DNA of 64,000 bases. It comes from Vermamoeba vermiformis. Taxonomy: Eukaryota. Numbering within the stretch: the first letter of the stretch is position 1; every line of letters begins with the position of its first letter. This document shows positions 25,982-63,708 of the stretch, one piece after another. The notes beneath the pieces were generated by a model that searched no databases, was not told where the DNA came from, and saw only the letters and a list, made by a program, of their open reading frames with translations. The DNA lies in the NCBI GenBank assembly GCA_045837725.1, contig JBEWZL010000036.1, positions 1-64,000 of the forward strand. Reading direction: 5' to 3'. Position numbers and translations under genes: made by a program.

Positions 25982-26038
25982 GTTGATCTGCAACAAAATA
26001 AATAACTTGCGGACAAAAACTAAAACCAAATCACTTTA

Positions 26039-35628: not shown

Positions 35629-38051
35629 ATGAGCACTGGTCTGCACATCAACAACATCCTCGGTGTAGGCACTGCCAGACACGTGCACTCGTTGTTGCAG
35701 TCACCGCACGATCTCGATACAGTGGGTGCGTGGTACTCCGTCCATATTAAATAGGACATTGAATATTAATATCAGCGCTATGCAGCTCGAATAAATCAAC
35801 TTAAATTCTGCGCTGCAAGACTTTAACTGCCGTTCAATTTCGATTTAAATTCAAATATTCAGCCAATTAAATTCTGCTGTACCCTGCACTAATACAGTCA
35901 TATTTAGATATGCCCATGGGACCTTGCGTGCTTCGTTGGTAAGATCTCAGATCACACAATTTCCTATTTTGGCAATGGTCACTGACTCCCTCTCATAGGC
36001 ATTTCAGTGAACAGCGACGCGTGTTCATGAAACAACTGCACGCAGATGGCATCACCAATCTCTTGCGCGCACCGCACCGCCAAGATGTGATCTGCACCAC
36101 CTCGTACGTCACGTGCCCTAATATAGACCTGCCTTATAACTGCAGCTAATCACGTGCTCAGGTACGGCGGTGAATTCAGATTTTGGCGCGCAGACGAGTA
36201 CACGCCGCTGACCCCCGCAGTGCACGTGTCAGTGGCCAATCACGTGACGCGCAGCACGCCCATCATGCACGCGAGTTGGAGCAGCGACGGACGCTACTTG
36301 GCGCTGAGTTCATTTCACCACGGCGTCGAGCCTGGCGCTGATTTGTTGCTCGAGCGGAATTATTCGTTCATCTCCGTGTACGAGCTCAGTCAGGGACTCG
36401 GTACGTGCTGCTGTTTGACACTTTTGACATCTGACACGTGACTGCAGATCAGCCCAAATTAGTCGCGCAACAGTGCGGAATATTTGATGGCCTGTGCGAG
36501 TGGCACGCGACTGACACGTGTCAAGTGCTGATCATCGCGGAGAACAGACCTGTCACTCAGTGGCACGAGCAGGTCACCACCAAAGACGATGAAATTCCGC
36601 TGCTGCACGTACTGCGCAGTGACACGTGGCAGCTGTCATCGACCAGGGCAGCAGCGCGACCCATATCGGGCATGATCTACGACAAGTCACGTGGTCAGGT
36701 GATTGTCGCGCACATTGACCGCACACTCTCCACGTGGACTGTCAGCGCGCAGCTCACCGTCAGTCACGTGCGCACGAGTGGCACACTGCCAGGCTCAGGA
36801 CGCATCTTGTGTCCCGCGGTGCTGTCAGACAGTCACGTGATTGTCGCGCCGAGTGAACAGGGCCACTATTATTCCGTGCCCATCGAGCACGTGACTGCAG
36901 CTGTCAACCCCGCCAAGACACATGTCACTCCGGGGCTCGTGTACACCTTGGTCCAGTCCATTGTTGACACGTGTCATTTGTGGATTTGCAATGATTCAGG
37001 CGTGCACCGCGCTAAATTTAGCATTACGCACAACGAGGGCGCACCGCAGCTAAAAATAGAACAGTTGCAATCCATCACGTGCTTTGAACTCGCCTGTTGT
37101 GGCCTGGACATCTGTCGCGCCACTGGCAATCACGTGGCCGTCGGAGATTTGACTGGTCGCGTGGTCGTGTGGGACATTTCCCAGCCCACGCCAAAAAAGG
37201 TAATCAACACCGAGGCCATGATCCGCTCGCTGACGTGGTGGCACGAGCACGACATTCAGTACGGCACGCTCAGCGGTGAAATCTACACGTGGTCTGTCAA
37301 CAGCGCACTCGCACCGAGTCTCGTGACAAGTGTGACAGGTGGTGTCACGTGTCTCGCGTGGGATCCGATCAGCCAATCAGTGCTCGCGGCTTCCACCACG
37401 GAAGGTCAGGTGTTCATTCTGTCACGCGCGCATGATGGCACGTGGCACCAGATCGGACTGATCGAAGCACGTGATCAGCAGCCCTACGTCAGCTCGCGCG
37501 AGATTTGGTCCGTGGCGTGGAGTCCTTGCGGAAATTTCTTGGCAACAGGCGGTGAAGATCGCATGACACACCTTCACCGAGTGCAGCGAGTGACAGGTGT
37601 CAAAGTAGAGCCCAAGCCAGAGCACGTGTTGCACGAGAAGAGTGCGGCAGTGACGTGTTTGGACTGGCAAATTGACAGCACGAACAGCGCGGTGTTGGCA
37701 GTGAGTTCAGACGACTGCACCGTGCACTGCTGGCAAGTGATTCATGAACGAGATCACGTGCCCGTCATTCGCGGAGTACTGCGCACCGACAGACGACAGC
37801 TGATGATCACGTACTGCGCCCTCGAACAGCGCGGCACTCGTCTGTTCTGCGGCACCATGGGTGGCTCGGTGTGGCACTGTCACGTGACTGATTGCGACAG
37901 CACGACAGCACACGTCAGACCGCACTTTGGCAGTGTGGAGGGACTGCGGGCCATGTCTTTGCCTGATTTGGGCATCACTCGTGTCGTCACGTGCGCCTCT
38001 GATCTCACTGTGCAGATCACTGATTATCCGATCGATCGAAGGAACTTGTAA
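35629..38051 (+). CDS. WD40-repeat protein
   Basis: WD repeats VAVGDLTGRVVVWD, VTCLAWD, IWSVAWSPCGNFLATGGED, VTCLDW..SSDDCTVHCW. Confidence 0.8.
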
Positions 38052-38293
38052 TATGTACATACAAAGTAAAGGCGGTTGACCAGTAAAACGCGCGTAAATA
38101 GATTCAATAAGCAGCCCTCAGAGATTGGACAGTGTCGACTGCTGAAGGGTGAGTGGCTGTGGCTTGACATTGTTCTTCATTGAATACTTGCAGTACAACT
38201 TGGCTCGAGCTGCAAAGATGCAAATATTGTAGAATTTCGCTTGACTGGCTCATAGAACAATAATGCATAAAAGTGAGCAATTTATTTCCTCAT

Positions 38294-40119
38294 TTAGTAA
38301 ACATAAGGCACAATGCGGTAGGGCACAGCGCGACAGTACTTGTCCCAGTCCTCTTTGCCGTACTTGAGGATGCACCACTCGTTGTCGCGTCGCTCGCGCT
38401 GGATCAACAAGATGGTCAAGAAGATCGCGTTCGTGAACGGCGCAATGTTCAGTGCCATGCAGGGCAAGCCCAGTGCCCAGGCCACGATCAGATCGCCAAA
38501 GTAGTTGGGTTTGCGCGAGTAGGCCCAGAGTCCCGACACGAGCAGATCTCGGCCCTTGCTCGTGCGCACCACGCGCGGCGCTTGACCAGCGATGAGTGCC
38601 GTGGGATCTGCGCGGAACTTGCGGCGCTGTTCATTGGCCACACCGAAGATGTAGTAGCCGAGGAAGAACACCGCGAGCATGGCAGCGATGGTGAGGGGCG
38701 TGAGGGTGCGCGGTGCAGCGAGGGCAGTCCACTCGGGCATGGTGTAGCCGAAGGGCAGCAGCACGGTGTTGCCCCAAGTCAAGCCCCAGCCCATGTGCTC
38801 CACGGTGAAGTCAATCATGCCTGGCTGGTGGTCAGTGCGGGCTATATGGATTGGGCAGTGTACTTACCGAGCACATAGGTCTCGTTGAAGAAGTAGTGGA
38901 AGATGTAGATCTGGTGGAACAGCACGACCAGCACCATCGAGGCCGTCACTGCACCGCTCTGCAGGTACTGTTGATAGGCCAGCAATAGTGCCACCACTCC
39001 CCAGCCACTCAGCGCACGACCTTCGAGGTACCACTTGAGATCTGACACCACCACGTTGAAGAAGCGCGGATTTGGTTCGTAACCGTGGAAGAAGTCGACG
39101 AACAAGTTGCCGTGCGGCAGTCCTTGCTTGAACAGCGCACCCTTCGCATAGAGCAATATGGCAATAGAATAGGCGAACAACTGCGCGACACTGAGCACGG
39201 CACCGAACTCGCGCATGAAGATCTGCATCTTGCTGCTGTCCAACACGCCTGAGTAGACGCAGCCAGCGAATACAGCGAGTGTGAGTACATAGGAGCTGAG
39301 ACCATTCACCTTGTACACGTAGCGTTGTCCGACGGGTGCGGTGGGCCAGCCAGTGAAGTACTGCGCGGATGTGGTCAGTAGCGTGCAGGAGAGCAATACT
39401 GGAGCGTAGGTGCGTGATATATGCTCACTACTATTGTATATAGTGCTGTCTTACCTGACCTGGCAAGAGGATGTGCAGTGCGTACTGGCTAATGAACCAG
39501 CCGAAGAAGATCAGAGCCTGTGCAGCAGAGATTAGTGCGAGGAGACAAGTGCCGCGTTACAAGATAGCACGTCTGTATTAGTGTTGTATTTAGATGGCGT
39601 TGATTCGAACAAATAGTCCATAACAAAGTAACGATGGACCGCCAACTGTCACGCGATCCATTGCAAAAAACTTTTGTAACAAAATGGCTAGACTACAACC
39701 GTATTTAATAGGCATTGTTATTATTAATTTACTATTATTATTAGATATTCGTACCATTACGCAAGATATTTTTCATCGCAGTAATAAAAAAATTACGCCA
39801 CAGATATTATTCACACGGCCAATATTATACTAGACTACGATATATTACTTACGCCCATATAAGTCGGGGCAGGGAACAACAATTTGAGTGCATCCACGAG
39901 AGGAAGAGCGCGCAGGGCATTGAAACCATCGATCTCAGAGCACTGATGCTGGGAGCAGCTGAAGTATAAGAAGTTGACAAAGGTGCTCAGACCTAACATA
40001 ATAGCAATGCAGCCAATAGGACCCGCCATCAGGGCGACGTCGGGGAACGGATCCGAACTCGCTGCTTTGGCTGCAACGGCTTGGTCCGCTTGCTTAGCGG
40101 GAGACTTGTTGCTCTTCAT
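38294..40119 (-). CDS. Sterol reductase (ERG4/ERG24/LBR/DHCR7 family)
   Basis: YKVNGL, DFFHGYEPNPR, LLVSGLWAYSRKPNYFGD, RERRDNEWCILKYGKEDWDKYC..VPYRIVPYVY. Confidence 0.9.
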
Positions 40120-40261
40120 AGTGCTATGTACTGTATACTCGTTGTTAATAACAGCCCGACAACAAATAGCCGGTTTTCGGGCTAACAATTGCTCCGTGAT
40201 CAGCTGAAATCAAATTAGCACGCGTTACGCCTACAGAACACAACAGCACTCAGAGTCAATA

Positions 40262-40959
40262 TGGAGCTACTTACTAAGGACAAGGTGCAAGAGCTGTTCA
40301 ACTTCAAAGAACTGAGCTTCACAGACAACGCACTGGTCAACAAGAAGATTGACAGCGCCAAGATGTAAGTGACGCACTGTAACAGCTGCCCTGCTCACTG
40401 CAGTGTATTTTAGACCGATAGTTGTGGGCTATGGAGTCGATTGGTTTATTCCTGCCAGAAAAACGTGAGTTTGTTTAATTATAATAATTCAAATTGATTT
40501 AATGTGATAAATCTGACTTTGTGACAATGACACAGATTAGAGGCACTAGCAGAGGTGTCGCAAGCAGGAGTTGAGATATATTTAGTAGATCAAGAGCAGT
40601 CTCCTAGCGTTTGTCGCGAGAACAACGTACAACGTAAGACAGCCACATCCACCCTCATAATATAAATATTCAATGGAATCAGACAACACTCCTTCTGTTC
40701 ATATATATATAATACCCACGTATACTCATCACTGCTCACAGTAGGCACGCCATTCGTCAAGGTCTATCACCAGGGCAAAGCAATGCCGTTCAAATTCAAC
40801 GCGTACTCCGATGTGTCGCAGAGTCACGTGATCGATGCCAAAAAAGGCGATGAGCGATTGATGATTGGTGCACTCACGCGCCGTCACGCCACGACACTGG
40901 TCTCTGCGGCAGTGAAGGCGATTAACAGACACGAGAAGTCAATTGAAATCATTTGGTAA
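40262..40959 (+). CDS. Small thioredoxin-fold-like protein lacking CxxC
   Basis: Spliced PIVVGYGVDWFIPARKT|LEALAE..IYLVDQEQSPSVCRENNVQ|PVGTPFVKVYHQGK. Confidence 0.5.
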
Positions 40960-41467
40960 CGGCACACTAGGCGCAGTGTTATTATGACGGGGCTAGAGAG
41001 AGGGAGGGAGATAGATAGAGCGGTGAGATAGAGAGGGGCAGATAAGAGTAGAAAGCGTTATTTATTTGTGTAGTGCTGCACTGCCCCTACTCGTACCTGC
41101 ACCTCATACCAGTACTCATCACTGGAACATGCCTGCTGCACTGTATTCGTCATACTATAGCACTGTATTCATCACTCCATAGCACTATCACCACTACCAC
41201 TATATTCATGACTGCACTATTCTCCAATACAGCGCAATACCATTCATGCACCTGTGAAATGTCAGTGTACGGCAAGAGTCAGCTGACGTAATAAACATTT
41301 GCATCGGTACCCTCACCCATTCTATTATTATATCCTCTATCTATTATCAACTGCAATTCTCAGCGGAATTCGATCCAGCTGGAATAATTCCGAGGGTTGT
41401 TTTTTTGCGTCAAAACAATGAAATTAGTTAAATCAACGCGATCACAACCAGCAGCACAGTAGTTGAT

Positions 41468-42559
41468 ATGACTAGGCCTATATTCTTCGTCGTAGCAGTG
41501 CTGCTGTGTTGTTTAAGCAGATTCACCTCTGCACAGCTCGACTGCACCTTTACTAATTTGAACGAGACACAATCGAGCATTGTCATCGATGGAACGTTAC
41601 AAGGTGCTTATTGCTATCAAATATTGTACGTAATTTTGCATTATTAATGTCGGTGGTTTATTTAATCCAAATTTAAAAACGTTAATTAAAATTCAAGTCT
41701 AATCTTTTCTTACAATAAATATTATTGTGCTATATAATATAAATTTCTAATGATAAATGCATAGTATAATGATATTGAAATTTTTAAACTTTACCCGAAC
41801 CAAATCCACCCGCAAACTCCGTTATTAATCCATAACTATTCAGTCCTACCATCGGAATTGGTAGTGAGGTTCAGTACATCAACTTAACCATCTCCAACTA
41901 CACGCTGGGTGACGCTATCATGGCGTTCTATGATCTGGCGCCGATCAATCAAAAGCTGCTTGGCTCGCTCACTGGCGCGTACAGCGGTGAGGTGCAGGTC
42001 TCGAGCACGACTGGCACGCTGTGGATCATCATGCAGACCAAGGACAAACTCGCGGCACCTGTCACCGTCAATCTGCGCTGGCAGTCCAGTCTCAGCATTG
42101 TAAGTGCTGTTCACTGAACCACTGATTCATGAACCACTCTGACACTGCACCAGGGCAACATCCCCTCCTTCGCGCTGTTCGTGGGCTTGATACTGATGCT
42201 CATCGTGCCGTTCTTGGTGCTGCTCATTGTCACGCTCACCATTCGTCGCCGTGAAGCGCGTCGCGTGCAGCAACTGATGCGCGATGCGGAACAGGGCACG
42301 GACAATCCGATTGGTGCGTGGTCACGTGATTTGAAGTGCTTTTGGTACGCGCGAACTGACACTTTCCTAAATAGGCAAAAAGCACCGCGCAGCCCTGCCG
42401 AAGAGCAAAGTGGTGGGCAATCAACTGATCACCGTGAAGCCACCGCCAACCAAAGCCGAGCACGTGATCATGTGGCTGTCGATTGGCGTCACGATCTTGT
42501 TCTTCGTGCTGCTGTTCACGGGGGCATTCTCGTTCTCATTCCACGACATTGGATTGTAA
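41468..42559 (+). CDS. Signal-peptide membrane protein with a CUB-like ectodomain and two TM segments
   Basis: Signal peptide MTRPIFFVVAVLLCCLS. Ectodomain YCYQI..INLTISNYTL..SSTTGTLWIIM. TMs FALFVGLILMLIVPFLVLLIV and IMWLSIGVTILFFVLLF. Confidence 0.55.
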
Positions 42560-42743
42560 GCGCGATTTGCAAGGACCGCGCAACTGTAATATATTGATGA
42601 TAAAGAATGTGTTCATATGCTCTGCGTCCTCGTGTGCTTGATAGTGCTGTGTTTGATGTAGTTCACTCGTCCTCGTAGTGTAACTCGTGCCATTCACTGC
42701 GCAATTATTTTTGTTAGCATTGATCTGACAGCGAACACTGGTC

Positions 42744-44441
42744 ATGTTTTCAGCGCGACTGGTTCAACGTATGTATTTAATATTATTGGCGTACTATCTC
42801 TCTTATGGAATTCAAAGCAATGTTACTAGCGACAAGATCTGGATCTGACAAAGAATAATTAAAATAATTTTAAAAAATAGGGCTTAACCAGCGAGTGGTC
42901 GGAAGAACAACGTACACAAATAATACAACCACTAATATTAAAAACAATCGATTTTCAACTTCAAAACAACGACGCAATGCAGATGAGAACAAACAATTGC
43001 AAAACAACGCTGAATCAGGCCCTAAGCATGTAAATAAACAGACTGCGAGTCAGACACCGGCGACGCATCAAGTACGCATGCCTGGTGAGGGCGCAAGCAC
43101 GCGCTTCAAAGTCGGCTTGTTGGCTGGATCTGTTGCCCTTGCACTGTTCGGTGAGTTCACTCAGCCAGTACTCGCATTCATTGCATGTGTATATCGCACA
43201 CGAGTATATATGTGCACTTATAAGGACTGCAACTATTTTGGATGGAGATAAGCAGCCAGATCTGCAGATCCGCTTCCTTTCTTTGCACTGCACAGTACTC
43301 TTCACCACATACATTACAGCGATATATATATATGCAACCAATACTCACACGCTACGCACTACAGGAGGCTATTTGCTGGGTCGTCAAGCCACACAACGAG
43401 GTCCGCGCCAAACACTGAGTGCGCGCATTGCTCAGCTGATCGATCAGATTGACAGCGAGATCTGTACGTCCTAGTGATATTAATATATATATATACACGC
43501 CTGCTGCGACTAACACTGCACCAGCCACGCGTCTGCACCGCTACGTGTTTGGTCCCGTGCAGACGATGAGTCTCTCGTACTTGAGTGCTGCGCGCATCAC
43601 ACACAAGCTCGCAGAACGACTCAGCGCGGGCACACTGACACTCGACGACGAGGGACGACACCGCGCACGACTGCCCCCGCCCCTGCCACACCCTTTCGTG
43701 CGACCACTGACGGTGCTCATCTCGCTCGAAGCAGCCATGTACTACAGCGATCGATCGCAAGCTGATGCACTGCTGTTGAAGGACTTGTTGACGGACGAGA
43801 ATCGCGTGGCCAAGGCCCTGGCAGCGAGTGAGGACGAGATCATTGCAGACCCACAGCTGCGCACCATTCGTCAACTCGCGCGTGCTGGTGCGGCGGACAG
43901 CGAGATCAAGCCGCGCAAGCGACCAGGTCTGGACAACTTCCTCGCACACCTCGCGCCACAAGTGGAGCTGATTGTGTACACCGATCAGCCCATCTACAAC
44001 GCCGAGCCCATCATTGAGCGCATGGACCAGGACGAGCTGCTCGATTACACCCTGACGCGCGAGAACGGTCTGGTGGCGTACGACATGCCGCTGAAAGATC
44101 TGACGCGCATTGGTCGTGATCTGCGCAGCTGTGTGGTGATTGACTGCAAGCCCGCCACGCTGCAGACTGACAACTTGCTGCTCGTGTCGGACTGGGACGG
44201 CAACAGACAGGACTCGGATCTGTTGGACATTGTGCCCTTCCTCGAGTGTACGTAGTGCTGCTCACTAGTGGTGACCGCTAACTGACCTCATTCAGATCTG
44301 TCGCGCCACGCCAAGCAAGGTGGAGATGTGCGCGACATCTTGCGCCAGTACAAGGGCAAGAACATCCCTGCACTCTATCGCCAGCGCCGTGCTGGGCCTG
44401 GACAGGGTCAACAAGCTGCGAAGAAGTCTGGCTGGTTCTAG
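42744..44441 (+). CDS. TIM50: Mitochondrial import translocase Tim50-like (NIF/FCP1 domain)
   Basis: Presequence-like N-terminus and a TM segment, then LPPPLPHP..LTVLISLE..KRPGLDNFL..ELIVYT..KDLTRIGRDL..VVID..WDG..DSDLLDIVPFLE. Confidence 0.8.
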
Positions 44442-44762
44442 TGCGCACGTGCATTCACTCGTGTAGTGCGCTGAACACACTGTTGTAAATAAATACTAAT
44501 AAAAAGAAGCGCGATCATATCCAGTTGTTGGTGTGAATGAGCAGCGTACGAACACGCGAGTGATTATGAGAGGATGATTATATTGGATTGGCGGCGTTGA
44601 TACATTCGTCCTCCGCGTTACATTAGCATTGATCATGGATGGAGCACGCATTCACTTGAATGATTCTGTTTATTCGCAACAGCTGCACATATATATATCA
44701 CAAGTTCGCTATTGTTCCTTAGCCCCCTTATTATCAACCCCCACTTCAATCCCTCTGTGTTG

Positions 44763-45582
44763 TTACTTCTTCTTCTTGTCGTCCTTCTTACTATCGCTCT
44801 TCTTAGCATCGCTCTTCTTAGTGTCGCCCTTCGCTGCACTCTTCGCTGCTTGACGACGCTTCTCGGGCAGACCTTGCTTCTCGATCTCCGCGTCTTTGGC
44901 TGCTGCTTTCTTCAGCGGGGCCTCGAAGTACTTGAGCACGCCGCTCAGACTCATGCCTTCACGTGCTCGCCACGCCTTCTCTTCCTCTGTCATCTCCGCA
45001 CTCAAATGTACGGGTTCTTTCACGCGCTTTTCGTCAATATTGCGCCACGGGTGACCTGGGGGATCCGATCAGCAATCGTGAAATCAATAGCCAAGTTTGT
45101 TAGATTAAAAAATGCTAGTGTGCAGTACCAATTATTGTTGATAATTTTAATGTGCACAAGAATTGCATACGGCCGGGATTAAACAAAAATAGCGAATATA
45201 AAAAATAATTCAAAAAAAATTATAATAAATCACCCAAAAATTATATAAGCATTACTAGTATTAACTTACGTTCTTTGACGTGTGATACAAGTGCGTAGAA
45301 TGAATAGGGCTCTGTAACAGCTAATTCAGCCAACATCTTGCGGTTCAAAGCAACATCCTCCTTGACGAGCGATGATATGAACTGCGAATAGACCATGCCG
45401 TGCTGACGAGTGGCAGCGTTGATTTGAGTCACCCACAGCTCGTGCATGCTTCGCTTTTTGGCCTTGCGATCCCGATACGAGTATTGCAATCCCTTGTGCA
45501 CCTTCTGACGTGCAACAGTCCACACATTCTTATTGCGGCCAAAATAGCCCTTAGCTAATTTGAATACTGCTGCTTTCTTCAT
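44763..45582 (-). CDS. MRPL20: Mitochondrial ribosomal protein bL20m
   Basis: FKLAKGYFGR..GLQYSYRDRKAKKR..LWVTQINAATRQHG..YSQF..LNRKMLAELAVTEP. Second exon gives a Lys-rich tail. Confidence 0.88.
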
Positions 45583-45788
45583 GGTGCTGTGGTTGATCCA
45601 GCAGTGTCGTTACAAAAAATGATATTAATAACGAGTCTGATGAATAAAATGACACGGGGGTAGGATTCAATCACAATTTAAATAAGGGGTTGATATTCAC
45701 AAGTGAGTACAGAGTTCTTTTACTTTCAGAGCTGTCCCGCGTCACTGCGAGGTCAGATCTGCCTGGACCGGTGCTCGGATGCAGCTGA

Positions 45789-48018: not shown

Positions 48019-48166
48019 GGTGCTCGAGTATACTGCTACGCTATGAATGCAATTCAGAGTTGTGCGCGTGACTTAATCGTGCCAGTTAAGTCCAGGCCAC
48101 TGACGTCACTTGTGGGCAAGGTGCGAGGTATTAGTATGAATAGTAGCAGCACTACCATGAGGCAAG

Positions 48167-51850: not shown

Positions 51851-52078
51851 ACCTCCTGTATGATAGTCTCTCTGGATGTGGATTGTGTAGGTTATCCTAT
51901 CGGTCCTCTCGACTTTAAAGCTCTTCCATTATTCTGTTTCATTGTTTCCAATCCCACAAAGCATTCAGTGCAGGGTGTGGCAAGGCCTTGCCACTTGTAG
52001 TCCTACATCAACAACAGCAGATGGTCGTTCCCTGCACCAAGGACCTATGAAATAGTTGCCTCCAAACACTGCACTATT

Positions 52079-53225
52079 TTACACAGTTTTATTTTCTGTC
52101 TCGCTCGACTTCTTGGGGAACCATGGAAAGAAAGCATTTGTAGTCAGCTGGTACTCTTTGTAATCTTTGCGTGATTTGACTGCCTGGGCCTCCGTAGGTG
52201 GAATGCCAGTGACACGTGTCACAGCCACGTACATGAGTGCTGGCGACGCGACCCCAGCGAGCAGTGTCCACGGTGTGTGTGCACAGAGTGGTACGTATGA
52301 CAGCCAATAGATCCACTCGAAGAAGTAGTTCGGATGGCGCGTGTAGTGCCACAGTCCCTCGCGACACGTGCGCGCAGCATTCTCCGCACGTGATCGGAAC
52401 TCGCGCAGTTGTCGGTCAGCAGTGCTCTCGCCCACCACTGCCACGGCCCACAGCGAGGTCGCGAGTGCCACACTGCGCGGTGCTGGCATTGATCTCCGCG
52501 CGGAGATTGCGAGCAGTGGCAGCGAGAGAATGGAACTCAGCAGCGCTTGTGCTTGAAAGAATAGGAACATGTTCTTGTCAGTTTGATTGCCCCATTGCGC
52601 GCGCAGTTGTTGGTAGCGCTTGTCTTCGGGGGCTTCAGATCCGATGCGCGATGTTAAATGCGAGACGAGTCGTGCGCTCCATGTGCTGCATATCAATGGG
52701 TCAGTATTCTGCGCTGGTGCAATAGAAAGCAATAGCTCGCTAATTAGGGATAATATCAACACGAGGACTGCGTATTGAGCCTCACCTGACCATCACTGCT
52801 TGTACCGCGCGATTGAAGACGAGACCTGTTGCATAACGCCTATCATACTCCATCCATCAATATATATATATCAGCTAGTCTCACCTCGTCCCTTCGCAGC
52901 ATAGAACAAGGACAGCGCACCGAGCCCTGCAGTCCAGCCTACATCTACAATGTTCGCATTGCGCGTGTGTTGCTGATACACCCACAGCCCTGTCATAATA
53001 CAACATCAACTACTATGCTATACACAAGTGCCTATTGTGCTCACCGCCCTGCATGACTGACATGCCGGCTAATCCGCCCACAAATAACTTGACTGAACCA
53101 AGCGATTAATTAGCTATGCGCAGTGGAAATATTATCATGGCGATACATATAGATAATTGTAGTATATTTCGCTGTATTATTTAACAAATGAAGTCAACTA
53201 AGATCCACGTACTTGAATGCAACAT
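52079..53225 (-). CDS. DUF1295 / steroid-5-alpha-reductase-like membrane protein
   Basis: EDKRYQQLR..W, FQAQA, ESTADRQL..F, CREGLWHYTRHPNYFFEW, GIPPTE, YKEYQLTTNAFFPWFP. Confidence 0.85.
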
Positions 53226-53433
53226 GTCACTGAAGAGCAGGTGTACTGTAACACATATATATATATGCACGCTTAATATCACCCACTAAGGTGTTATTAA
53301 TAGTATCACGTGCTTGTGGTTGTGGTGCTGACGTCGGTTAGTTATTTGAACAAAATTTCACAGCAGATCCAAACTGAACAGCACTCAGCCACCACACACC
53401 ATCATACACCAGCAATAATACTAATAGCACACT

Positions 53434-54466
53434 ATGGCGAGTCTAGGGTTCAGAGATCGTACCTCCGAGTTCACATCCATCGCGGAGTCCATTCGCAAGC
53501 GCAATGAGATCGTCGTCAAGCCGCGCACAGCACAGAGCTTGATCAAGCAGAAAATTGGCGTGCATAAAGTGGCAGCGGAGATATCGCGTCAGACATATGA
53601 GACCACTCTCAAACTCGGTGAATTGACCAAATGTAAGGCCGAGGCACAATTATTATTAATTATTTGTATTTTTATTATAATTTTCGTATTTTTCCGTTTA
53701 CTATCACGACGTTAAAACACGATCAAACAATGAAATTCAGAACACAACGCGCTATATCTAACGCTGCTCTATACCAGTGGCCAAATCAACCTCGTTGTTC
53801 AATGATCCGACAGAGAAGATCCAAGAATTAGTCTACATCATCAAGCAAGACATACAGTACCTCGACAAGAAGATTATAGAGCTCGATCAGCTGGTCAAAT
53901 CACAGCGCGCAGGCACCGATCAAGCGCACTCGCACTCAGACACAATTGTTGACGCGCTCAAATCCAATCTGCGCAACACGACGCAGAACTTCACTAAAGT
54001 ACTCGAGATGCGCAGCGAGACTATGAAAGCACAGCAAGAGAAGCGCGAGAAGTTCACTGGCTCGCGACTGAGTGTTGCCGCGCAGACCTCTCAAGCGCAG
54101 TACAGCTCGGGTGGATTTGGCGGTGGATTTGACCAGCCCGACGAGAACGAGCACGAAGTCGCGCTGCCAATGGTCACGATGCAGAGCTCCGTCATCGAAC
54201 AGCGCTCCAGTGCAGTGCGCGCCATTGAACAGACCATTCACGACTTGCAGCGCATCTTCCAGCACTTGGCGCAGCTGGCGCACGAACAAGACGCGCAGAT
54301 CCAGCGCATTGACGACAATGTGAATGCGACGGTGCTGAATGTGGAGGGCGCGCACAAACAACTCGTCACCTACCTGGCCAAGGTCAGCAACGATCGGTGG
54401 CTCATCCTCAAAGTGTTTGGCATTCTGCTGCTCTTCATATTCATATTTGTCGTATTCTTCGCATAA
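53434..54466 (+). CDS. STX5: Syntaxin-5 / Sed5 Qa-SNARE
   Basis: N-peptide FRDRTSEF, LAKSTSLFND..EI.EL..IIKQDI, SNARE motif IEQTIHDL..F.HLA....Q...IQRIDDN, C-terminal TM. Confidence 0.92.
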
Positions 54467-54708
54467 GAATGCAAGGAATAGGACCTCATTGTATTATATA
54501 CGTACTAGTAAACCCCTCCAAATATGTTTTGACCACATCCGCTAGTGAAGAGCCGTTGTATTTGGTGAATGTCTTTATTGTTATTCAACTAATGATCCAC
54601 GTGAGCTGTTAGTCCACTAGTACATTATTAATAAGCAGTTGCGTGCTTAATTAACTGATAGATATCTTGTTGATGAATTTACAAGGCTGAAATGAGTAGA
54701 TGTATCTT

Positions 54709-55065
54709 TTATGCGTCAGCAACTTCGGTGGGCTTCATTTGTTCTATTTGTAATTTATTAGTACATTTTGTATATATATTTGTGGCGTAAAAGCGGTGGT
54801 AACAAAAATTGATCAAATGCAGAAAATAATAATTAAAATAAACCTCAAAAATGGGTTAATAATTGTTTAAAATTAATATTATGCATCCCCACGCACCTAA
54901 TTTGCCCTTATTGCCCTTGGACCATTGTCTGAACTTCATATTTTCGAGTTCGCGAGAAGCAGCTTGTTTCTTAGCGTTGTCCTTCATGCACGAGCGCAGT
55001 ACTCGCGAGCAGATGTTGACGTAGCGGACGTAAGTGAGGCCAGCAGCTCTCCAGAATTGCACCAT
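54709..55065 (-). CDS. ATP15: Mitochondrial ATP synthase F1 epsilon subunit
   Basis: FWRAAGLTYVRYVNICSRVLRSCMK..KFRQWSKG. Confidence 0.85.
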
Positions 55066-55328
55066 GGTGTTGTGTTAGTGTTGGTGTTTTGGTTGCAGAT
55101 GGAATGAACAGCCATGCAGCGCTGCAAGGACTTGTCGCACGTGATCGTTGCACTAAGACAGCTGATGTACGAATGCACTCGAAGTTAGCTCAAAGGTGGT
55201 TGAAGAGGATAGTATTTAATGGAGTCAGTCGTTTGTACACAGAGTGAGATCTGGGACAAGATGCGCACAAGAATTGAAGTTAATTATATTACATAGGCAT
55301 GTAACGCATCGCATGCACTCTCCACGGC

Positions 55329-56341
55329 TTAATCGCGCTCAGCAATAGCAACCAAGTGCTCGTCAATCTCAGCAGGAGTCAGCAGTCTGAATCCAGATTC
55401 ATTCGCCGCTACAATGCCGACTTCAATCTCAGTGGCCTTGAAGTCCGTGTTGAGCACTGATTGCAGCGCATTGATTGCGAGTCTGATGGTCTCCTCGCGG
55501 CTCAATGCAGGGTTGTGTCGCAGTTTCTTTTCCAAGAAGTTGTTCGCCTCGATCTCCTTGGCACCGGCACTCGTAGCCTTGTAGCCGACAAAGTAGCCTG
55601 CAGGGTCGCACTTGTAGAGCTGCGGACCAGTCTCCTCGTCCATGCCAATCAAGATCATTGTGGAGCCCAGAGGACGCATGTACGCGTGCTGCGTGTGCAC
55701 CTGCGCAATGTCTGCCACGCGATTGGCGAGGGCGTGCGGGGGGATGTCGTAGCCGTACTTGTACTTGAACTCGGAGGCCTCGTGACGCGTGCGTTGAATT
55801 TGTGACTTGCCGTCTGCGATAATGCCTGTCACCACGCAGCCAATCTTGGGCGTCAGATTGGCCATCGAGCTGACGGTGGAGGGGTCCAACAAACGATCCT
55901 GCGCAATGGTGTTATTACGCGTGTTATTGCGGTGTATATGGCACCAATAGGCCTCTTGTAGTGTTCACTTACAGGTACTTTCTTCTGCGTTACAATGCAG
56001 CACGAATCTTTGCCGCGCACACCAATGGAGGTCATATCGCTGTTCTTAATGGCCTTGAAGGCATATTCTGCAATGCGATGTTAATATCAACTAATAACGC
56101 AGCACTAGCAAGTAGCTCTAAGGTGGTGATGAAATATTTGATCGCAAAAAAAAATTGAAAAAAATTTGAAAAATAATTTTAAATAGTCACCAATGCCACA
56201 ATAATTCATAATACAATAAAATCTGGTTGAATAGGGCCACAAACAGCACCAATAAAACATACCAACTTGATAGAGTCGTCCTTCAGGAGAGAAGATGGTG
56301 ATGTGAGTATCATAACCTGCACTTGAAGCCCCGCGACTCAT
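55329..56341 (-). CDS. PSMA6: 20S proteasome subunit alpha-1
   Basis: [67 protein letters not shown]. Confidence 0.95.
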
Positions 56342-56543
56342 TGTGTTCTAATGTGTATGTAATACTAATACTAGTGTTATAATAAGAGCTAATGATAGCG
56401 CGTTGAGGCTCGTTGTAATCAACACAAAATGAAATAAAATTGAAAGTTTTTCCTCCACGCAACATTACCAACTTTTATGTGTCAATTTTGCTATCGACCA
56501 CGACCACTAACGAGCACTCTGTATTGTATATAATAACACCCCA

Positions 56544-57842
56544 ATGTTGTTGAGAGATATATGTGTACGAGCCAGCAATTTGTCCAAGCGTTCCAATGTA
56601 CGTTAATCTGGATCCGGATCAGCGTGAATTCAATTTCGTGTTAGCTGCGTAGACAATACGAACAAAACATTATTAACAATATTATAGTATTAATACTTCC
56701 TGTCCAGATATTACAACGCCGTTACTCGACAGATCCCACATCTGCCAAAGCAGCACTGCTTGAAAAAAGAGTACGCCCTCAATAGCCCGTCAATATCACC
56801 GCTAATATTATGCGCACTACAGAGACTACGCGATCACATATTACGTGCCTCCACTCCCGACGCCATCCTGGTGGCAGTGAATGCGACGCACATGACCAAG
56901 ACTGCGCGCCACAAACATCATCTGAGCACCACTACCACACAACTACTCGGTCTGTAACTATATGCTGCACCCTCGAGGCACATCTGACACCTTTCTCTCT
57001 GTGCAGGACGCGCCCTGTCCGCAGCAGCAGCCATGTCCTCGTTCATGAAAGGCGATGAGCGCGTGTCACTCACGTGGCGCGGTCGCGGTGACTTGAAGAC
57101 CATGTACGCTGAGGCTAGTCGCAACGGTGAAGTGCGCGGCTACGTCACGCCAGCAGATCTGCATCTGCCCAGCAGCACGCCCCTCGGCTACGCACTGCGC
57201 ACAGGCGTGCTGAGTGTGAGTCAGGTGCTGTACAATCACGCCAAGCCCTATCAGTCGATGGTGGAGCTCGCAGAGGGCGATGTGAACAGCGATGTGGAGC
57301 AGTACTATCGCCTCTCCGAACAGATACCCACACTGCTCGCCATGGAGACGGTGCTCGATGGTGCGGGCGAGGTGTTGTTCAGGTACGTGCTGCGGGTATA
57401 TATATAGACATATGTACATATATAGTACTCACTGGTGTGCAGCGGAGGAGTGCTGATCCAAACAGTGCCGCAGACCGATGCGCCGAGTGCCAGCACGCAG
57501 CACGTGATCGATCGATATCGCGAGCGACTGCGCACACTGAGTCCCGCGAGTGTGCTGTTCTTGGACGAGACGAAGAGCCTCGAACAGCTGCTGCACGTGA
57601 TCGAGCCCAATGTGCGCGCAGAGAGCTTTCAGAAGCTGCTGTGTGACTTCTACTGTCGCTGCTCCAAACAACGATTCCGCGACAGTCTGATCACCCTCGG
57701 CGCGCAGCAGCTGAGCAGTGTGTTGCACGACATGGAGCACGAGACGACGTGCACGTGTCAGTACTGCAACAACCGCTACGTGTTCTCCAGACCTGAAGTC
57801 GAACAGCTGCTCGAACACGTCACGAGCAACACTGTAAAGTGA
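56544..57842 (+). CDS. hslO: Hsp33 (HslO) redox-regulated chaperone, probably mitochondrial
   Basis: LLG|RALSAAAAMSSFMK..G.G.L..MYAEA..GEVRGY, YQSMVEL..G.V..D..QYY..SEQIPT, GGVLIQ.VP, Zn sites CRCS and CQYCNNRY. Confidence 0.85.
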
Positions 57843-57984
57843 GCTGCAAATAAAGACATTAAAATTATGACGGTAGTGTACTGTCACGTGGTTTGAAATT
57901 TCGTGTCACGTGGTGTTTTGGCGCCAAATCCGCCCAATTTATTTAAAAATTGAATTACACGAGTCGCACTGCAGACAATGCACG

Positions 57985-60900
57985 ATGAGTGGCATAACTA
58001 TACTGGGTCAATATAAGCCACTCACCTTGCGCGAAGATACGGCGAGCAAAAATTATTTCTTTTTTCGACCCGATGACAAGCTGGTAGATCATGAAGAAGA
58101 GATATCTATTCAAGACAATATAGTAATATGGACGGCTGGTCAAGTCGTGAAGCGCAAAATCACATTGGAGCACCGAGTAATACAAGTCGTCTGGGCTAAT
58201 TTTTCAGCTGATCCAAACAAAAACACCAAGACGGACTTGTGTATTCTCCATCAGGGTATGGATCACCGGTAATATTCAACTATTATTAATGCAATAAATT
58301 CAGAGGGTCTGTACGTGCTCGTAGATCAAGGCGGCAGTTCGTATTGGGATGTACACGTTTCATTGCCGTGCAAGGTCACAGCTTTATGGTGAGTCGATAG
58401 ATGCATTATTACAGCCGCCATACTAACCACTACTAGGGCTGTTCATCGCGGCGTCATTCTGCAACGACGCACGACCAGCAGCACATCCGAGCCAGGCCTC
58501 GAGTCCTTGCCCGTGTACTTCTCGCTGCTGCATCCCCTCGAAGAGATCAAGCCCCTCGCATTCATGCCGCACACACACGGCGCTGAATTCACGCAAGAAC
58601 TGACGCTGGTTGCCTGTTCAGATGTGTTGCCGCACGTGGTGTTCTTTCATGAACGGCGCATGCAGCACAGTGTGTGGCTGCTACGACGCCGCGCGAACAT
58701 GCACCGCGAACTGACCTATGCCCTGGCCAAGCAACAGGACGCGATGGAGAGTGACGGCGAGCAGATCCAGTCCGAACTGTTCCTCGAATTGATTTACCTC
58801 GCGACTGATGTGCCGTCACGTGCCACACAATTAGTGCTGTTCCAGGACCGCGAGCTGGTACGTGCTGGCACAGTGCCACTTGTCACAGAATGACAGCTGT
58901 TGTTGACACTTGACAGGGACTGCATTACGCGGTTTATTATCCCGCCATTCATGAACTGCGCACGTGGCGCATCGATCACGTGACACAACTCAGCCCTGGT
59001 CGATTGACGCGACAGCACGTGCACGCAGTACAGCCGCTGCACGGTGTGCCGCACAATGTGGTGCTGATCGGCGATCGATCGGTGCACGTGGCGAGTCACG
59101 TGATGTTGGTGGTGCAGGACAGCGCGCAGTCACGTGATTGGCTGTTGGTGGTGCAGGCCGTGCAGCATCAGATCTGTGCCTGGCCAGTCGCGGAGTATTT
59201 AAATATTCCGCACTCGATTGTTCCGCGACGCAGTGCCACGCCCCTCGCACTCACTCCGACACGCACGCCGCGCAAAGGTGAGAGTTTGACACGTGTCATG
59301 CAGCCAGTGGTGCCAGAGCTCGATCACGTGACCATTGAAGACAGCATCGACACGCGCTTCAACGTCGTGGTGCAGTTCCGTGCGATGGATCCGCTCATCT
59401 ATCGCGCGACACTCTCCCTCACCCCGCGCTCAGTGCTCACACGTCACGTGCTCAGTGCGCTGCGTGGCGTAGTGCCACCACAGCTGTACGATCACACCGT
59501 GCGCGTGCTGCTGCTCGAAGCTGATCTCAGTGGCGGAGATGAGTGGCAAGTGTTCGCCTCGTTCATGAAACAGTTGTTCCGCACGCATCTCTTGCAGTCT
59601 GCTGGCACTGCAGCTAATAATAGCACACAGGACGCGTGGTCTGCGCTGTTGTCGAGCAGTCACCATCGACATCACGTGGAGGGAAATTTCCTCTCGAAAT
59701 TTCGCAAGCCACTGCCGAATTTGGTCAATGTCGCAGCGGACAGTCACGTGGCCCTGGACACGTCACACGTGCAGGCCTTCAAGCCGTATTTGGCGCAGAT
59801 ATACCACGCACTGCACTTGGTGTACGAGGACTACAAGCTCGATCAGCTAAAAATAGCGCAACTGTCCGCACTCGCAACGCTGCTGATCGAATTGAGTGTG
59901 GTGGCACAGTGCCACGCCTACACGGATCATTATCTCCGCGATGTTCCGCAGCTCTACGATCACGTGCGCGCAGTGCAGCACGCATTGACACCTGTCAAAC
60001 GTGTCGCCGAGTTCATTCCCGAAATGGCAACACCTCCCTCGATCTATTTTTGGCTCATGACTGCACTGCGTTACCCAGACAATATTCCGCCCTATCCGCT
60101 GTTGACAGGTGTCACTGACTCGCCCTTCGAAGTGACACGTGCGCTGTGTCGTGTCTATCACGTGATTTTAACGTCACGTGATCACCCGCACTACTGTCCT
60201 GCAGTGCCACCACGCCTCCACGTGACAGATTCGTTCGATGGCCCGATGCCACCGTTCATGAATGCCCCTGCTCCTGTGCAGAACAGCGCCGAAGTCGTTC
60301 ATGAATGGACGCACGTGCTGGTACAAGAATCGAATCTCCTCGAAATTTCATTGCCTTTTGGTGTCGCGCAGTTGATCCGCGAGGCCCTGGCCAGTGTACG
60401 CCACATGCCACCACGTGACAGTCCAGCGCGACTGTTGACAGCACTCGATCGACTCGATCTGCTGGCACTCTATTATCCCGAGTACGTCACGTGATCCATG
60501 TTTGTGCTCCTACTAATTGCCTAATTTAGTATGTTGCCACCCAAAAAAGTACTCGCCTCCGCATTTGATCCGAGTCAATCTCCCGAAGATCTCCCCGAGT
60601 CACGTGATCGCATTGACGGCACTGAATTGGTACGTACAGCGTGTTTCGTGCAGACGCGTGTCTGACAGGTGTCACCACAGAGCAACGAAGTGTCATTCAT
60701 GCGCTTCGCCAAAGACACGCGTCTCAAAGAAGTGCGGCGATTGTTCCGCTCCTCGCACGTGTTCACCGTGCACTACGGACACGAGGACGGCGAAGATGTC
60801 GCGCAGGGCCAACAAGTGCGGCTGTTGCTGCACGCCAACAAGTATCTCGCGCGCACGGTGGCACGTGGCATGTTCACGCTGGGCACGGACACGCAGCTCA

Positions 60901-63708
60901 AGCCACTGTTCTCGGAGAGCATTCCGATCCCGGAACTGAGCACCACGGCTAAATTTAGACCGCAGGGCACGACTGTCACTCTCGATCTGACACCGTATCC
61001 CGATTTGGTAATGATTGCTGCTCTGCATTAGCTGTCCCTCACTGACACTAAAAATAGCTGCACTGGCCCGAGTTCCACAACGGAGTGGCCGCTGCACTGC
61101 GCGTGCCCCCCGAGCTGAGCGCGCAGATCACGAGCACGTGGATCATCTATCAGAAGAACACGGCGGAACTGACCAATGGCCACGCAGGGCTGTTGCTGGC
61201 CCTCGGACTGCAGGGTCACTTGCGCGCCCTGTCGCTGACCAAAGTGTACGAGTACTTGAGTGTCAGTCACGAGTTGACAGGCATTGCGCTGCTGCTCGGC
61301 ATGGCAGCCTCCAAGCTGGGCACGCAAGACACAGCGATCAGTCGCTTGTTGTCCGTGCACGTGACTGCACTGCACCCGCCCCTCAGTCAAGAGCTCGATG
61401 TGCCCTTCAGACTGCAGACCGCGGCACTGCTCGCACTCGGCATGCTGTACCGTGGCACCTGTCACCGTCGCATTACCGAAGTGCTGCTGACCGAGATTGG
61501 TCGCAAGCCCGTGGAAGAGAAGCAACAAGCGCGACCATTCGAGCGCGAGAGTCACTCGCTCACTGCTGGTCTGGCCCTCGGACTCGTGGTGCTGGGCCGC
61601 GCGGACTCGGCGACTGGTCTGCACGACTTGGACATTCAGCAGCGCCTGTTACGGTACATCACCGGAGGTCCCTCCGATCAGCGCAGTGACACGCGCACCA
61701 GTCTGCTGTCACAACGCGCGAGTGATCGGGCCCGATCGAGCACAGTGCTGGAGGGCACCTCGATCAATGTCGACATCACTGCCCCTGGCGCCGTGCTCGC
61801 CCTCGCCCTGCTCTATCTCAAGTCACGTGATCGCAGTGTGGCAGCGCGCATTGACATCCCCGACACGTGCTTTGCATTCCAGTACATCCGCCCTGATCTC
61901 GTGCTGCTGCGCGTGCTCGCCAAGAATTTGATTCTCTGGGACGACATCCAGCCCACCGCGGAGTGGATCGAGGGTCACGTGCCATCGGTGATGACAGGTG
62001 TCAAAGCGCAGCTCGGGCGCGAGATTGAGAGCGGAGATGCGCAACAGACACTGCGCCAGGGCTACTTCAATGTGCTCACGGGGGCCTGTCTCGCGCTGGG
62101 CTTCAGATTTGCAGGCACCGCGCACAGTGCCGCCAAGCTAGTGTTGACGCAATATTTGCAGTATTTCATCAAGCTGCAAAGAAGCAAATTTGACCGCGCA
62201 GACAAGAACATGCTGGAGTACTGCATGAACAGCGTGGCCCTGGCACTGAGCATGGTGATGAGTGGCACTGGACACCTCGGCACATTTAAGTACGGCCCCT
62301 CATTGCCTTATTTGGTAATTGCTGACTTCTATTTTTAGAATTCTCCGCACACTGCGCAAGCGAGTCTCAGTGGATGTGACGTACGGCAATCACATGGCAC
62401 TAAATATGGCAATCGGATTTCTATTTTTGGGTGGTGGTCGCTACACGCTGGACACCTCCGCGCAGTCCATCGCTTTCCTTTTGTGTGCTGTTTATCCGCG
62501 CTTCCCGCAGAACTGTCGCGACAATCGCTATCACCTGCAAGCTTTGCGGCACTTGTACGCACTGGCTGCTGTGCCACGGTACGTCAATGCCTAAATTAGG
62601 AATACGCATCTAACGGAGTCTATTTTTAGCTGCATTGAAGTGCGCGATGTTGACACGCAACGACCGGTCTACGTGCCACTGAACATTCACTTCAGACCTG
62701 ACTTTGACACTTCGGAGCATGTCATTCAGTACGTATCTCACTTTGACACGTGTCATCAGTTCACTGAACCTCTCGCTTGACAGATTGACAGCGCCGTGTC
62801 TGTTGCCACCAGTGCAGTGGATTACAAAAATAGAACTCGCCACGCCACGTTACTGGTCACTGACACTGTCACGTGATCGTCACGCTGCAACACACCCTTT
62901 GACACTTGTCTGCAGTGACACCTGTCAGCGCAGTCCCGTGCTGCACGTCAAGCGCAAGTCAGCGTATCTCGATTACGATCTCGATCCCGACGGCGTCAAG
63001 TCCCTCAGTGCACGGCCCTACTCGCAGACACTGCGACTTGACAACTTGACAGCTGTCAGCACCGTGCTCGATGCTAAAAATAGACGCGAGTTGTTGCTGG
63101 CATTCTCCGCTGACCCGCACGTGCTCGCATTCGCCACGCACTTCGCATCGGGCAATGACACGCGTCAAGTAGCATTCTGCACGGCAGTGTTGCTGGAGTG
63201 CCTGTCAGCGGAAAAATTGACGATGATTGACACGTACTTGACACTTGACCGTGTCGTGCAGTGTTTGACACGTGACACCGCGCCGAGTGCGTCCGAGCTG
63301 TGGAATGTCAAACTGATCTGTCAACTGTACACCCGCACTGACTGGCCCTGGTTGACATCTGACACGTCACCGCTGCTGCAACTAGACTACTTGACATCTG
63401 TCAAACTGAAGCTCGAGAGCTACTTCGAAGATTTGACTCGCCGCGCTGGTCTGTCGCGTGATGATTGGCTGGAACTTGCCAAAAAAGGCTATCTTTCTTC
63501 GCGCGAGAAACAGCGCCACGTGATGCAGCTGCAGCACTACTACGAAGTGCCACCACCTGTCATTCTGAAACACGTGCTGGACCTGCCGCGCCCTGATTCA
63601 GCCGCGCATTGGACACTATTTTTAGCACCACTCGCTCAATTCAGTGAACTGCGCCAGCACGACGCGAGCACAGTGCTATTTTTAGCTCGTGTGCTGAGCA
63701 GCTTGTAA
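57985..63708 (+). CDS. APC1: Anaphase-promoting complex subunit 1
   Basis: FSLLHPLEEIKP, LHLVYEDYKLD, RFAKDTRLKEVRRL, WPEFHNGVAAAL, HAGLLLALGLQGHL, INVDITAPGA.LALAL.YLKS, YGNHMA, DNRYHLQALRHLYALA. Confidence 0.95.

Follow-up and report, generated by a model that had tools for sequence, protein, structure and literature searches.

A 64,000-nucleotide (nt) stretch of the genome of the amoeba Vermamoeba vermiformis (assembly GCA_045837725.1, 43.3 Mb in 309 contigs; contig JBEWZL010000036.1, here C36, positions 1 to 64,000; "the window") holds a short repeat island, a candidate centromere, set among genes whose exons and introns carry dense optimal sites for several unrelated families of transcription factors (TFs). 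Here, we report that such islands occur at about one place per contig, that predicted MEF2, TALE, and bHLH-ZIP sites are graded over about ±40 kb around them, and that in two genes the bases of these sites are retained in a diverged lineage. On balance, we favor the view that Vermamoeba has short methylated centromeres and that the genes in the ~80 kb around each of them have been recast, even in their amino acids, to carry the optimal sites of much of its TF repertoire. Encoded in the sequence and graded with distance, such rewriting would be a response to the centromere, either an anti-silencing coat or a factor-biased conversion drive.

A first-pass annotation of the window had listed 19 MEF2-type sites, CTA(A/T)4TAG, and 7 CArG boxes, CC(A/T)6GG; every position proved exact, and three sites were added (MEF2 9112; CArG 48669 and 49877). 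Against 200 tile-wise dinucleotide shuffles (500-nt tiles), positions 32001 to 64000 contain 19 MEF2 sites (shuffle mean, 0.34; maximum, 3), 9 CArG boxes (mean, 0.96; maximum, 4), 97 copies of CACGTG (mean, 18.9), and 18 of the TALE site TGACASSTGTCA (mean, 0.02), and positions 1 to 32000 show no motif excess over the same shuffles (MEF2, 1 against 0.46; CArG, 0 against 1.4). The sites had been described as lying in coding DNA, which is true of the 12 exonic MEF2 sites; the remaining 7 of the 19 are intronic (46849, 49191, 49986, 50005, 61048, 62329, and 62620), three of them (61048, 62329, and 62620) ending in the 3' splice AG. They had also been said to force CTA or ATA codons (3.4% of Leu and 10.5% of Ile codons, respectively, in open reading frames [ORFs] of six blocks at or near islands), as 7 of the 12 coding sites do; the other five do not (e.g., GCT-AAA-AAT-AGA). 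Exons and introns were called by sequence reading, an APC1 gene model, and one RNA joint, the introns of the 48- to 50-kb gene being placed solely by GT..AG and frame. The gene names golgin-like (48150..50335), Hsp33-like (56820..57842), and L20 are ones we presume from the sequences. The main features are as follows.

1..27000: motif-poor contrast region (GC content, 42 to 47%; Pfam match in 1 of 6 scanned ORFs, ankyrin).
32001..64000, continuing to ~C36:88 kb: motif-rich gene domain around the island (GC, 0.43 to 0.58 per 2 kb).
36435..38051, plus strand: exon of a WD40 gene with ~18 motifs per kb, many of them E-box or TALE sites; MEF2 at 37012 (A-K-F-S) and 37050 (L-K-I-E), CArG at 37191.
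46849..46858: MEF2 site beside TGACACGTGTCA, in intron 46830-46879 of a minus-strand kinase gene whose exons are motif-poor.
48150..50335 (ends approximate), plus strand: coiled-coil gene directly left of the island; coding MEF2 at 48788, 49613, 49768, and 50177, intronic MEF2 at 49191, 49986, and 50005, CArG at 48669 and 49877.
50380..52080: CpG-depleted, untranscribed repeat island between two genes (RNA depth, 0 at 50671-52004).
50547..50860, plus strand: core repeat module, which recurs in as many as 20 of 21 further islands examined.
51044..51170, plus strand: tandem array with a 19-bp period; inverted partner arm at 51783-51832.
56820..57842 (5' part outside the model), plus strand: Hsp33-like gene, used in the conservation test.
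57985..63708, plus strand: APC1 gene (10 exons, 1754 amino acids); coding MEF2 at 59614, 59847, 60949, 63074, 63616, and 63676.
60660..60680, plus strand: intronic TGACAGGTGTCA, the longest word common to both lineages, the rest of the intron having diverged.
61048..61057, plus strand: intronic MEF2 site at the splice-acceptor AG, retained in the diverged lineage.
62306..62338, plus strand: intron with CArG at 62306 (retained in the diverged lineage) and MEF2 at 62329, at the acceptor.
62620..62629, plus strand: intronic MEF2 site at the acceptor, retained in the diverged lineage.
62740..62760, plus strand: intronic TGACACGTGTCA, again the longest word common to both lineages in an otherwise diverged intron.

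The motifs are enriched throughout the genome, in excess of a Markov null as well as of shuffles, and are not confined to the window by chance. CTAWWWWTAG occurs 4865 times genome-wide (1515 for the reversed pattern), and the two long motifs GCTAAAAATAGC and TTGACAGGTGTCAM occur 260 and 348 times (controls, 6 and 1). A genome sample of 730 kb (30 blocks on 20 contigs) was chosen non-randomly, with C3:400-450 kb taken on purpose for its cluster and C36:64-114 kb for its adjacency to the window. Against a local order-2 model, the 10-mers enriched outside C36 were ACACGTGTCA (107 against 1.6), GACACCTGTC (28 against 0.8), CTAAAAATAG (28 against 1.9), and CCAAATAAGG (20 against 1.6). Coding proxies made of long ORFs (172 kb) held 21 MEF2 sites (2.0 after synonymous shuffling), 27 CArG boxes (9.9), 172 copies of CACGTG (74), and 7 of TGACACGTGTCA (0.2), with no excess of reversed-motif controls (2 against 2.4 and 3 against 6.7). 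The excess was greater still against codon-order shuffles, with sites in two or three reading frames; amino-acid order is therefore affected as well.

Spacing within the motifs is exact. The genome sample holds 127 sites of the form CTA-W4-TAG, against 55 with W3 and 15 with W5; CTAAAAATAG is the commonest (44 of 127), and the flanks are G/T in 78% and A/C in 78%. CArG boxes number 199 with W6, 49 with W5, and 36 with W7, with T at -3/-2 in ~70%, and the TALE dimer TGACA-N2-TGTCA occurs 122 times, other spacers giving at most 6. Near islands, 44 of 45 copies of TCACGTGA read RTCACGTGAY. The corresponding consensi are G/T..A/C flanks for MEF2, TT..AA flanks for SRF/Mcm1, the TALE dimer, and, for Cbf1/USF-type factors, RTCACGTGAY. 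The genome encodes four MADS genes, one matching MEF2 (MEF2A, E 5e-31) and one Mcm1/SRF, together with ten TALE matches (the best resembling PKNOX1/TGIF/MEIS) and five bHLH matches (the best resembling MITF/USF); the MEF2, CArG, TALE, and bHLH-ZIP motifs are, as judged from sequence, predicted sites of factors that the genome itself encodes. The suggestion that optimal sites of several unrelated TF families co-accumulate in the same gene bodies is borne out across the genome sample. Further enriched words without an assigned factor are TTCATGAA, TTCA(C/G)TGAA, TGCCACCA, and CAGATCC (in the window at, e.g., 57041, 58948, and 60255). Silent-site bases of TTCAnTGAA are retained (15 of 15 and 14 of 14) in the diverged lineage described below, and CAGATCC, which is ungraded, occurs 31 times in coding DNA far from islands (8.7 expected).

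The first-pass annotation, right about the positions of its sites, had overlooked the repeat island (50380-52080) that organizes them. This island is gene-free, low in CpG, and high in depth in metagenomes. Searches with the island and its modules, which scored the best 40 of 87 and the best 40 of 52 candidates (more places are possible), put the family on at least 68 contigs, seven of them scraps of 2 to 5 kb. Among the matches listed, 67 of the 68 contigs have a single island place; matches on one contig lie within 3.8 kb of each other for 70 matches on 54 contigs and within ~10 kb on C239, and chance alone predicts ~22 same-contig pairs of matches. The islands, 22 of which were examined, are 1.5- to 3.5-kb patchworks of shared modules, up to 97% identical between contigs, with a CpG observed/expected ratio mostly of 0.1 to 0.8 (~1 in the flanks). 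Of 16 ORFs from island loci, 15 had no Pfam match and the sole match resembles a flanking gene; Rfam returned nothing in the window or in the locus of the C3 island (L015), and viral contigs contained no exact copy of a 26-mer taken from the island. Because contigs with a match have, with one exception, a single silent, CpG-depleted repeat locus, some contigs break at it (C89 and C202), and unplaced island scraps exist, the island is probably a short regional centromere; alternatively, it may be a transposon nest at some other once-per-chromosome site. Of its features, only the inverted 19-bp arrays suggest a transposon origin. Three-mismatch island matches on C53 and C89 were set aside as chance (the control gave 6), and a sole replication origin at the island gained no support, there being no consistent GC-skew switch and a weak AT-skew difference (p 0.02) only far away. 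Inside the C3 island, L015:6990-7095 (C3 at ~447 kb, minus strand) is presumably the 5' end of an 18S rRNA, below the Rfam gathering score.

Optimal sites are graded over about ±40 kb around the islands. The counts draw on the first 100 places listed for each long motif (out of 348 and 260) and cover contigs whose length and island position are known (41 MEF2 and 33 TALE listed sites elsewhere were left out), and the near-distance bins are weighted towards C36 and C3. Among the matches listed, MEF2 and TALE sites fall in a common cluster of 40 to 60 kb, about one per contig; 47 of 59 MEF2 sites (p ~1e-25) and 47 of 67 TALE sites (p ~2e-21) are found no more than 40 kb from an island, a zone that makes up 17% of the bases, or 43 of 55 and 41 of 61 without C36, and density per 100 kb declines from 7.2 at <10 kb to 0.2 at >80 kb for MEF2 and from 6.1 to 0.4 for TALE. 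On C44, C98, and C78, the clusters were seen first and islands then located inside them (at 363, 231, and 104 kb). Relative to synonymous shuffles, coding MEF2 sites number 18 against 0.6 at <20 kb and 4 against 1.2 at >100 kb, and coding TALE12 sites near islands 18 against 0.4; far from islands, several motifs are still 2- to 4-fold above expectation in coding DNA, a baseline excess. Away from the island, TCACGTGA falls from 45 to 3 and TGACAGGTGTCA from 20 to 1.4 per 100 kb. CArG had been grouped with MEF2 in one pattern, and here the two part company: MEF2, TALE, RTCACGTGAY, and TGCCACCA are graded, whereas CArG (29, 22, 26, and 33 per 100 kb with rising distance) and CAGATCC are flat. Protein sequence follows, with the dipeptide His-Val occurring 105 times near islands (53 expected) and 54 times far from them (45.5 expected). 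Clusters or scattered groups in which no island was found lie at C11:129-173, C53:80-107, C75:98-122, C83:151-192, and C77:303-346 and 492-540 kb.

Base composition changes over the same distances. GC falls from 0.50 to 0.39 away from the island, and GC at four-fold sites from 0.66 to 0.47. At four-fold sites outside motifs, the CpG odds ratio is 0.50/0.42 at <20 kb and 0.85/0.88 at >100 kb, as if methylation reached these genes, although differences in gene class may confound the comparison. The genome encodes several cytosine methyltransferases, among them a DNMT1-like and a chromodomain-bearing enzyme. The latter (L112, C11:560347-563613) has its chromodomain just upstream of the matched catalytic part, a chromomethylase-like layout; the DNMT1-like gene is on C124 (weak BAH match), another gene is on C236, and a gene on C232 is one we take to be DNMT2-like.

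Conservation was measured in two genes, APC1 and the Hsp33-like gene, between the window and one second lineage represented by metagenome loci L027 and L028, which are identical over 1667 nt; protein identity to the window is 85 to 86%. Synonymous third positions within strong motifs were retained in 104 of 115 cases when motifs are defined in one lineage and in 91 of 95 when they are defined in the other, against codon-matched values of 0.68 and 0.65, and none of seven control words was retained above expectation. Retention is base precise (0.90 inside motifs and 0.66 to 0.72 in every flank bin from 1 to 2 bases outward) and extends to the A/T bases of MEF2 motifs (15 of 16 and 12 of 12). At switchable silent sites, the motif state was lost in 24 of 320 cases against 109.5 expected (0.22×; control words, 0.73 to 1.24×) and gained in 24 of 82 against 12.6 expected (1.9×). 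The reduction in loss is firm. The suggested comparison of substitution rates inside and outside motifs finds an answer in these two genes, where motif bases change more slowly than matched silent sites. No such conservation is seen for the coding CArG boxes of the two genes (2 of 3 and 3 of 6). In seven of nine orthologous APC1 introns, the longest shared word (7 to 15 nt) is a TALE, MEF2, or CArG site or near-site; non-orthologous intron pairs share words of 5.3 nt on average and 8 nt at most.

Strong motifs touch 151 APC1 residues, mostly in segments poorly conserved among distant homologues: 102 of 933 residues in segments that cannot be aligned to those homologues are touched, against 49 of 821 in alignable ones, and alignable touched residues have an identity of 0.215 in distant homologues, against 0.417. 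Amino-acid conservation inside motifs between the two lineages is mixed (94 of 106 against 0.856, p 0.47; 74 of 78 against 0.853, p 0.02). Four distant APC1 loci (L029, L030, L035, and L036; 38 to 45% GC) contain no MEF2 or E-box sites. Near-identical window DNA is present in one water and one aquifer metagenome run, and the proteasome alpha subunit of the window shares 97% identity with a protein from a 90% cluster that includes a Vermamoeba vermiformis entry; both place the genome in the V. vermiformis group. Intron content also differs between the lineages: a 50-nt APC1 intron at L027:5441-5490 is absent from the window (61654), and the Hsp33-like gene intron at 57384-57442 is absent from the diverged lineage.

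Motif load is specific to the gene (chi2/df 6.5; 120 of 226 ORFs motif-free against 63 expected). Motif-rich genes are functionally mixed (APC1, golgin-like, USP, RCC1, WD40, Ric8, RhoGAP, Nup107, and BRCT), and the motif-bare genes adjoining the island, those for SMC1, a proteasome subunit, and a syntaxin, are well expressed. Across nine window genes, motif density falls with RNA depth (rho -0.84 and -0.82, from hand-read bins of a diverged RNA strain along a contig run), which is suggestive of low expression in the motif-rich genes. Within APC1, the conserved repeat region has 7 to 8 motif residues per 200. The 5' exons and first introns (window 57985-58600; MADS genes in L021-L024) are AT-richer and motif-poor relative to distal gene bodies and possibly form a separate promoter-proximal chromatin zone.

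Tentatively, we explain the pattern by weak selection for factor occupancy that keeps low-expressed pericentromeric genes open against spreading methylation. Each chromosome would carry one short, methylated, silent repeat island, most likely its centromere, from which silencing and cytosine methylation would leak outward, weakening over ~40 kb, as the silent-site CpG loss suggests. Weakly transcribed genes near the island could not stay open through transcription alone, and a base change that makes a high-affinity site for a factor the cell itself encodes (MEF2-type MADS, PKNOX/TGIF-type TALE, USF/MITF-type bHLH-ZIP, and others) would confer a tiny advantage through occupancy and open chromatin. 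In a large amoeba population, population-scaled selection of ~2 to 3.5 per site would suffice; by arithmetic, losing sites at 0.22× works out at ~2.5, and an excess of 30-fold at ~3.4. Sites would gather wherever the code permits: at silent positions, in short introns, at splice-acceptor ends, and in protein segments under weak constraint.

Several observations weigh against selection for occupancy around centromeres. The gain excess of 1.9× is not clearly above that of control words (1.0 to 1.95×), so positive selection for motif gains is without support, and the conservation evidence comes from two genes and one lineage pair. A codon-adaptation proxy gave no sign of lower expression in motif-rich genes (rho +0.25, n=67). 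APC1 starts motif-poor, with 5 motif residues in its first 200 codons against 15 to 33 per 200 in the next four bins, which is unlike a promoter-guarding element. The GC peak towards the island is not explained by selection for occupancy. As for the islands, C235 has modules at both 183 kb and 376 kb (a minor module 193 kb away), and telomere repeats, (CCCTAA)n, were found at 1 of 20 contig ends examined; therefore, the contigs are not proven to be whole chromosomes. Searches found no island in the clusters on C53, C75, C83, and C11:129-173 kb, the underlying DNA of which was not read; these clusters, and the groups on C77, may reflect undetected islands, misjoins, or fossils of inactivated centromeres on the two longest of the contigs examined.

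A rather unlikely alternative is that frequent gene conversion near the island spreads motif alleles without benefit: in a heterozygous or polyploid cell, the factor-bound allele would be cut less or would win heteroduplex repair, much as uptake sequences spread in competent bacteria, and GC-biased conversion would make the parallel GC peak. Bound factors reportedly can occlude Spo11 cuts, although a literature search for such occlusion returned nothing. GC and motif density lie on one gradient, island modules on different contigs are up to 97% identical, and the 2- to 4-fold baseline excess far from islands would follow as well, as would the uptake-sequence-like placement (several frames, doubled His-Val near islands, and poorly conserved residues). 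Conversion explains the GC peak better than selection for occupancy does, and motif selectivity worse: near islands, CArG and CAGATCC show no amplification, despite the SRF-type factor that the genome encodes, and since only some motifs are graded, factor-specific function fits better than a generic drive. Passages of a yeast study report that breaks are suppressed at centromeres, as is usual for centromeres, and track high GC (PMC7968521). The mutational shielding proposed by the first-pass annotation, in which bound bases mutate less and sites act as sinks, is in our judgment unlikely. Near the island it would be amplified by methylation or damage that raises the unshielded rate or by genes being old and unmoved. 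It is in keeping with loss at 0.22× with gain not clearly above controls, with protection that is base precise (0.90 inside, 0.66 to 0.72 in the flanks), and with the loss of silent CpG near islands, many E-box losses being CpG transitions. Yet A/T motif bases are kept as well as CpG, which rules out shielding from CpG deamination only, and the coding excess is 30- to 45-fold (MEF2, 18 against 0.6; TALE12, 18 against 0.4), calling for a shield far beyond the familiar range for protein-bound DNA, where binding often raises mutation. For the long motifs, shielding of about 10- to 30-fold would be required, which is implausibly strong.

It is quite improbable that the sites serve the island or nucleus itself, as a factor reservoir or as a structural coat for centromere clustering, cohesion, or early replication, in the manner of the yeast Cbf1 E-box (CDEI) spread over a domain. 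Density decays outward from the island and 44 of the 45 TCACGTGA copies near islands take the Cbf1/USF-type form, but the sites lie in flanking genes, the well-expressed SMC1, proteasome subunit, and syntaxin genes adjoining the island lack them, and no strand-skew switch at islands supports a sole origin. Still less does ordinary regulation with gene sorting appeal, that is, enhancers in the bodies of co-regulated low-expressed genes clustered at centromeres (duons), which we consider highly improbable. The ~140- to 190-bp gaps around APC1, the strong gene-to-gene differences in load, and CArG boxes that, with SRF/Mcm1-like flanks, behave like ordinary elements would suit it; against it, the motif-rich genes span diverse functions, genes of like classes are found among the motif-free ORFs, and ~20 sites per kb of several families is far above a normal enhancer. 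A compositional, splice-signal, or repeat artifact is scarcely credible. Three MEF2 sites do sit on acceptor AGs and the motifs are palindromic, but the counts are spacer specific, the excess survives codon-preserving shuffles, and the sites are conserved in an independent metagenomic lineage; base-level conservation, spacer specificity, and the shuffles, including those of window tiles, rule this reading out.

We found the arrangement described for no eukaryote in the open-licence literature; its parts have precedents. Short regional, repeat-relic centromeres are a known kind in protists and fungi; the islands resemble them as short, gene-free, silent, repeat-rich loci, about one per contig, and differ in sitting on a GC peak, not a trough. 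Barrier or nucleosome-displacing sites are known for USF1 at chicken HS4, for yeast Reb1/Rap1/Abf1/Cbf1, and for the Cbf1-bound CDEI of budding-yeast centromeres. The predicted sites here share with them the RTCACGTGAY E-box, a bHLH-ZIP factor, and a position near silent or centromeric chromatin; those systems have a handful of sites, placed at a boundary or within a point centromere, whereas here hundreds of sites per chromosome occupy flanking genes over ~80 kb. Duons, exonic TF sites defined by footprints, reportedly constrain codon choice. The constraint on synonymous choice is matched here on the sequence side, by predicted sites; duons have no centromere-centered gradient, and the density here is extreme and amino-acid composition shifted. 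The cyanobacterial motif HIP1 is likewise found in coding DNA and is comparable to uptake sequences.

Passages on Caenorhabditis elegans describe periodic A/T clusters (PATCs) as a dispersed feature of genes within repressive chromatin, proposed to license expression, and weigh selection against mutational bias (PMC4947018). The likeness lies in a feature that accumulates in genes of repressive domains and in the logic of licensing. As described there, PATCs are non-coding 10-bp-periodic clusters in long introns on chromosome arms; ours are discrete predicted sites for TFs of several families, sit largely within exons and introns of 50 nt, and center on what is probably one point per chromosome; judged on these features, without a computation of periodicity, they do not belong to the PATCs. 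In bacterial DNA uptake sequences, according to passages of PMC2817400, motifs in coding DNA make the matching peptides about twice as common and favor genes and residues of low conservation. The sites reported here likewise distort peptides and fall in weakly conserved residues. Each bacterial species has a single such motif (DUS/USS), linked to competence or a methylase, whereas here a eukaryote carries at least four unrelated motifs that match its own TFs on a chromosome-scale gradient; these are not uptake sequences. Centromere positions in Acanthamoeba are stated as unknown in part of PMC9528979, and the main text of a paper reporting a V. vermiformis genome mentions no centromere, motif, or telomere (PMC11702301). 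The open-licence PMC and bioRxiv literature yielded no description of this pattern or of Vermamoeba centromeres.

The islands are, to our knowledge, the first concrete centromere candidates for this amoeba group. If the reading given at the outset is true, this would be a eukaryotic case of chromosome position, via TF binding, driving the evolution of protein-coding sequence, centromeres could be mapped from motif density alone, and the island-less clusters (C11:129-173 kb, C53, C75, and C83) could be fossils of lost centromeres. Thousands of natural sites, a distance gradient, and diverged lineages offer a means of telling selection apart from mutational shielding and from conversion drive, which has long been at issue for exonic binding sites, and the motifs would read out, within the genome, the predicted binding preferences of amoebozoan MEF2, SRF, TALE, and bHLH factors.

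Conserved genes between 28 and 64 kb of the window comprise WD40, ERG24, NIF phosphatase, kinase, syntaxin, proteasome subunit, and APC1 genes, and the intergenic gaps flanking APC1 are ~140 to 190 bp long. The telomere repeat (CCCTAA)n was seen at C8:1-400 (L138), and the starts of contigs C12, C66, C30, and C48 carry subtelomere-like tandem repeats. At 28493-31741 (minus strand) lies a long single-exon gene for a Kelch/PKD-repeat membrane protein; after it comes a kinase-like 3' part, at ~27.5 to 28.4 kb. The Kelch/PKD gene is motif-free despite being GC-rich and lies 21 kb from the island.

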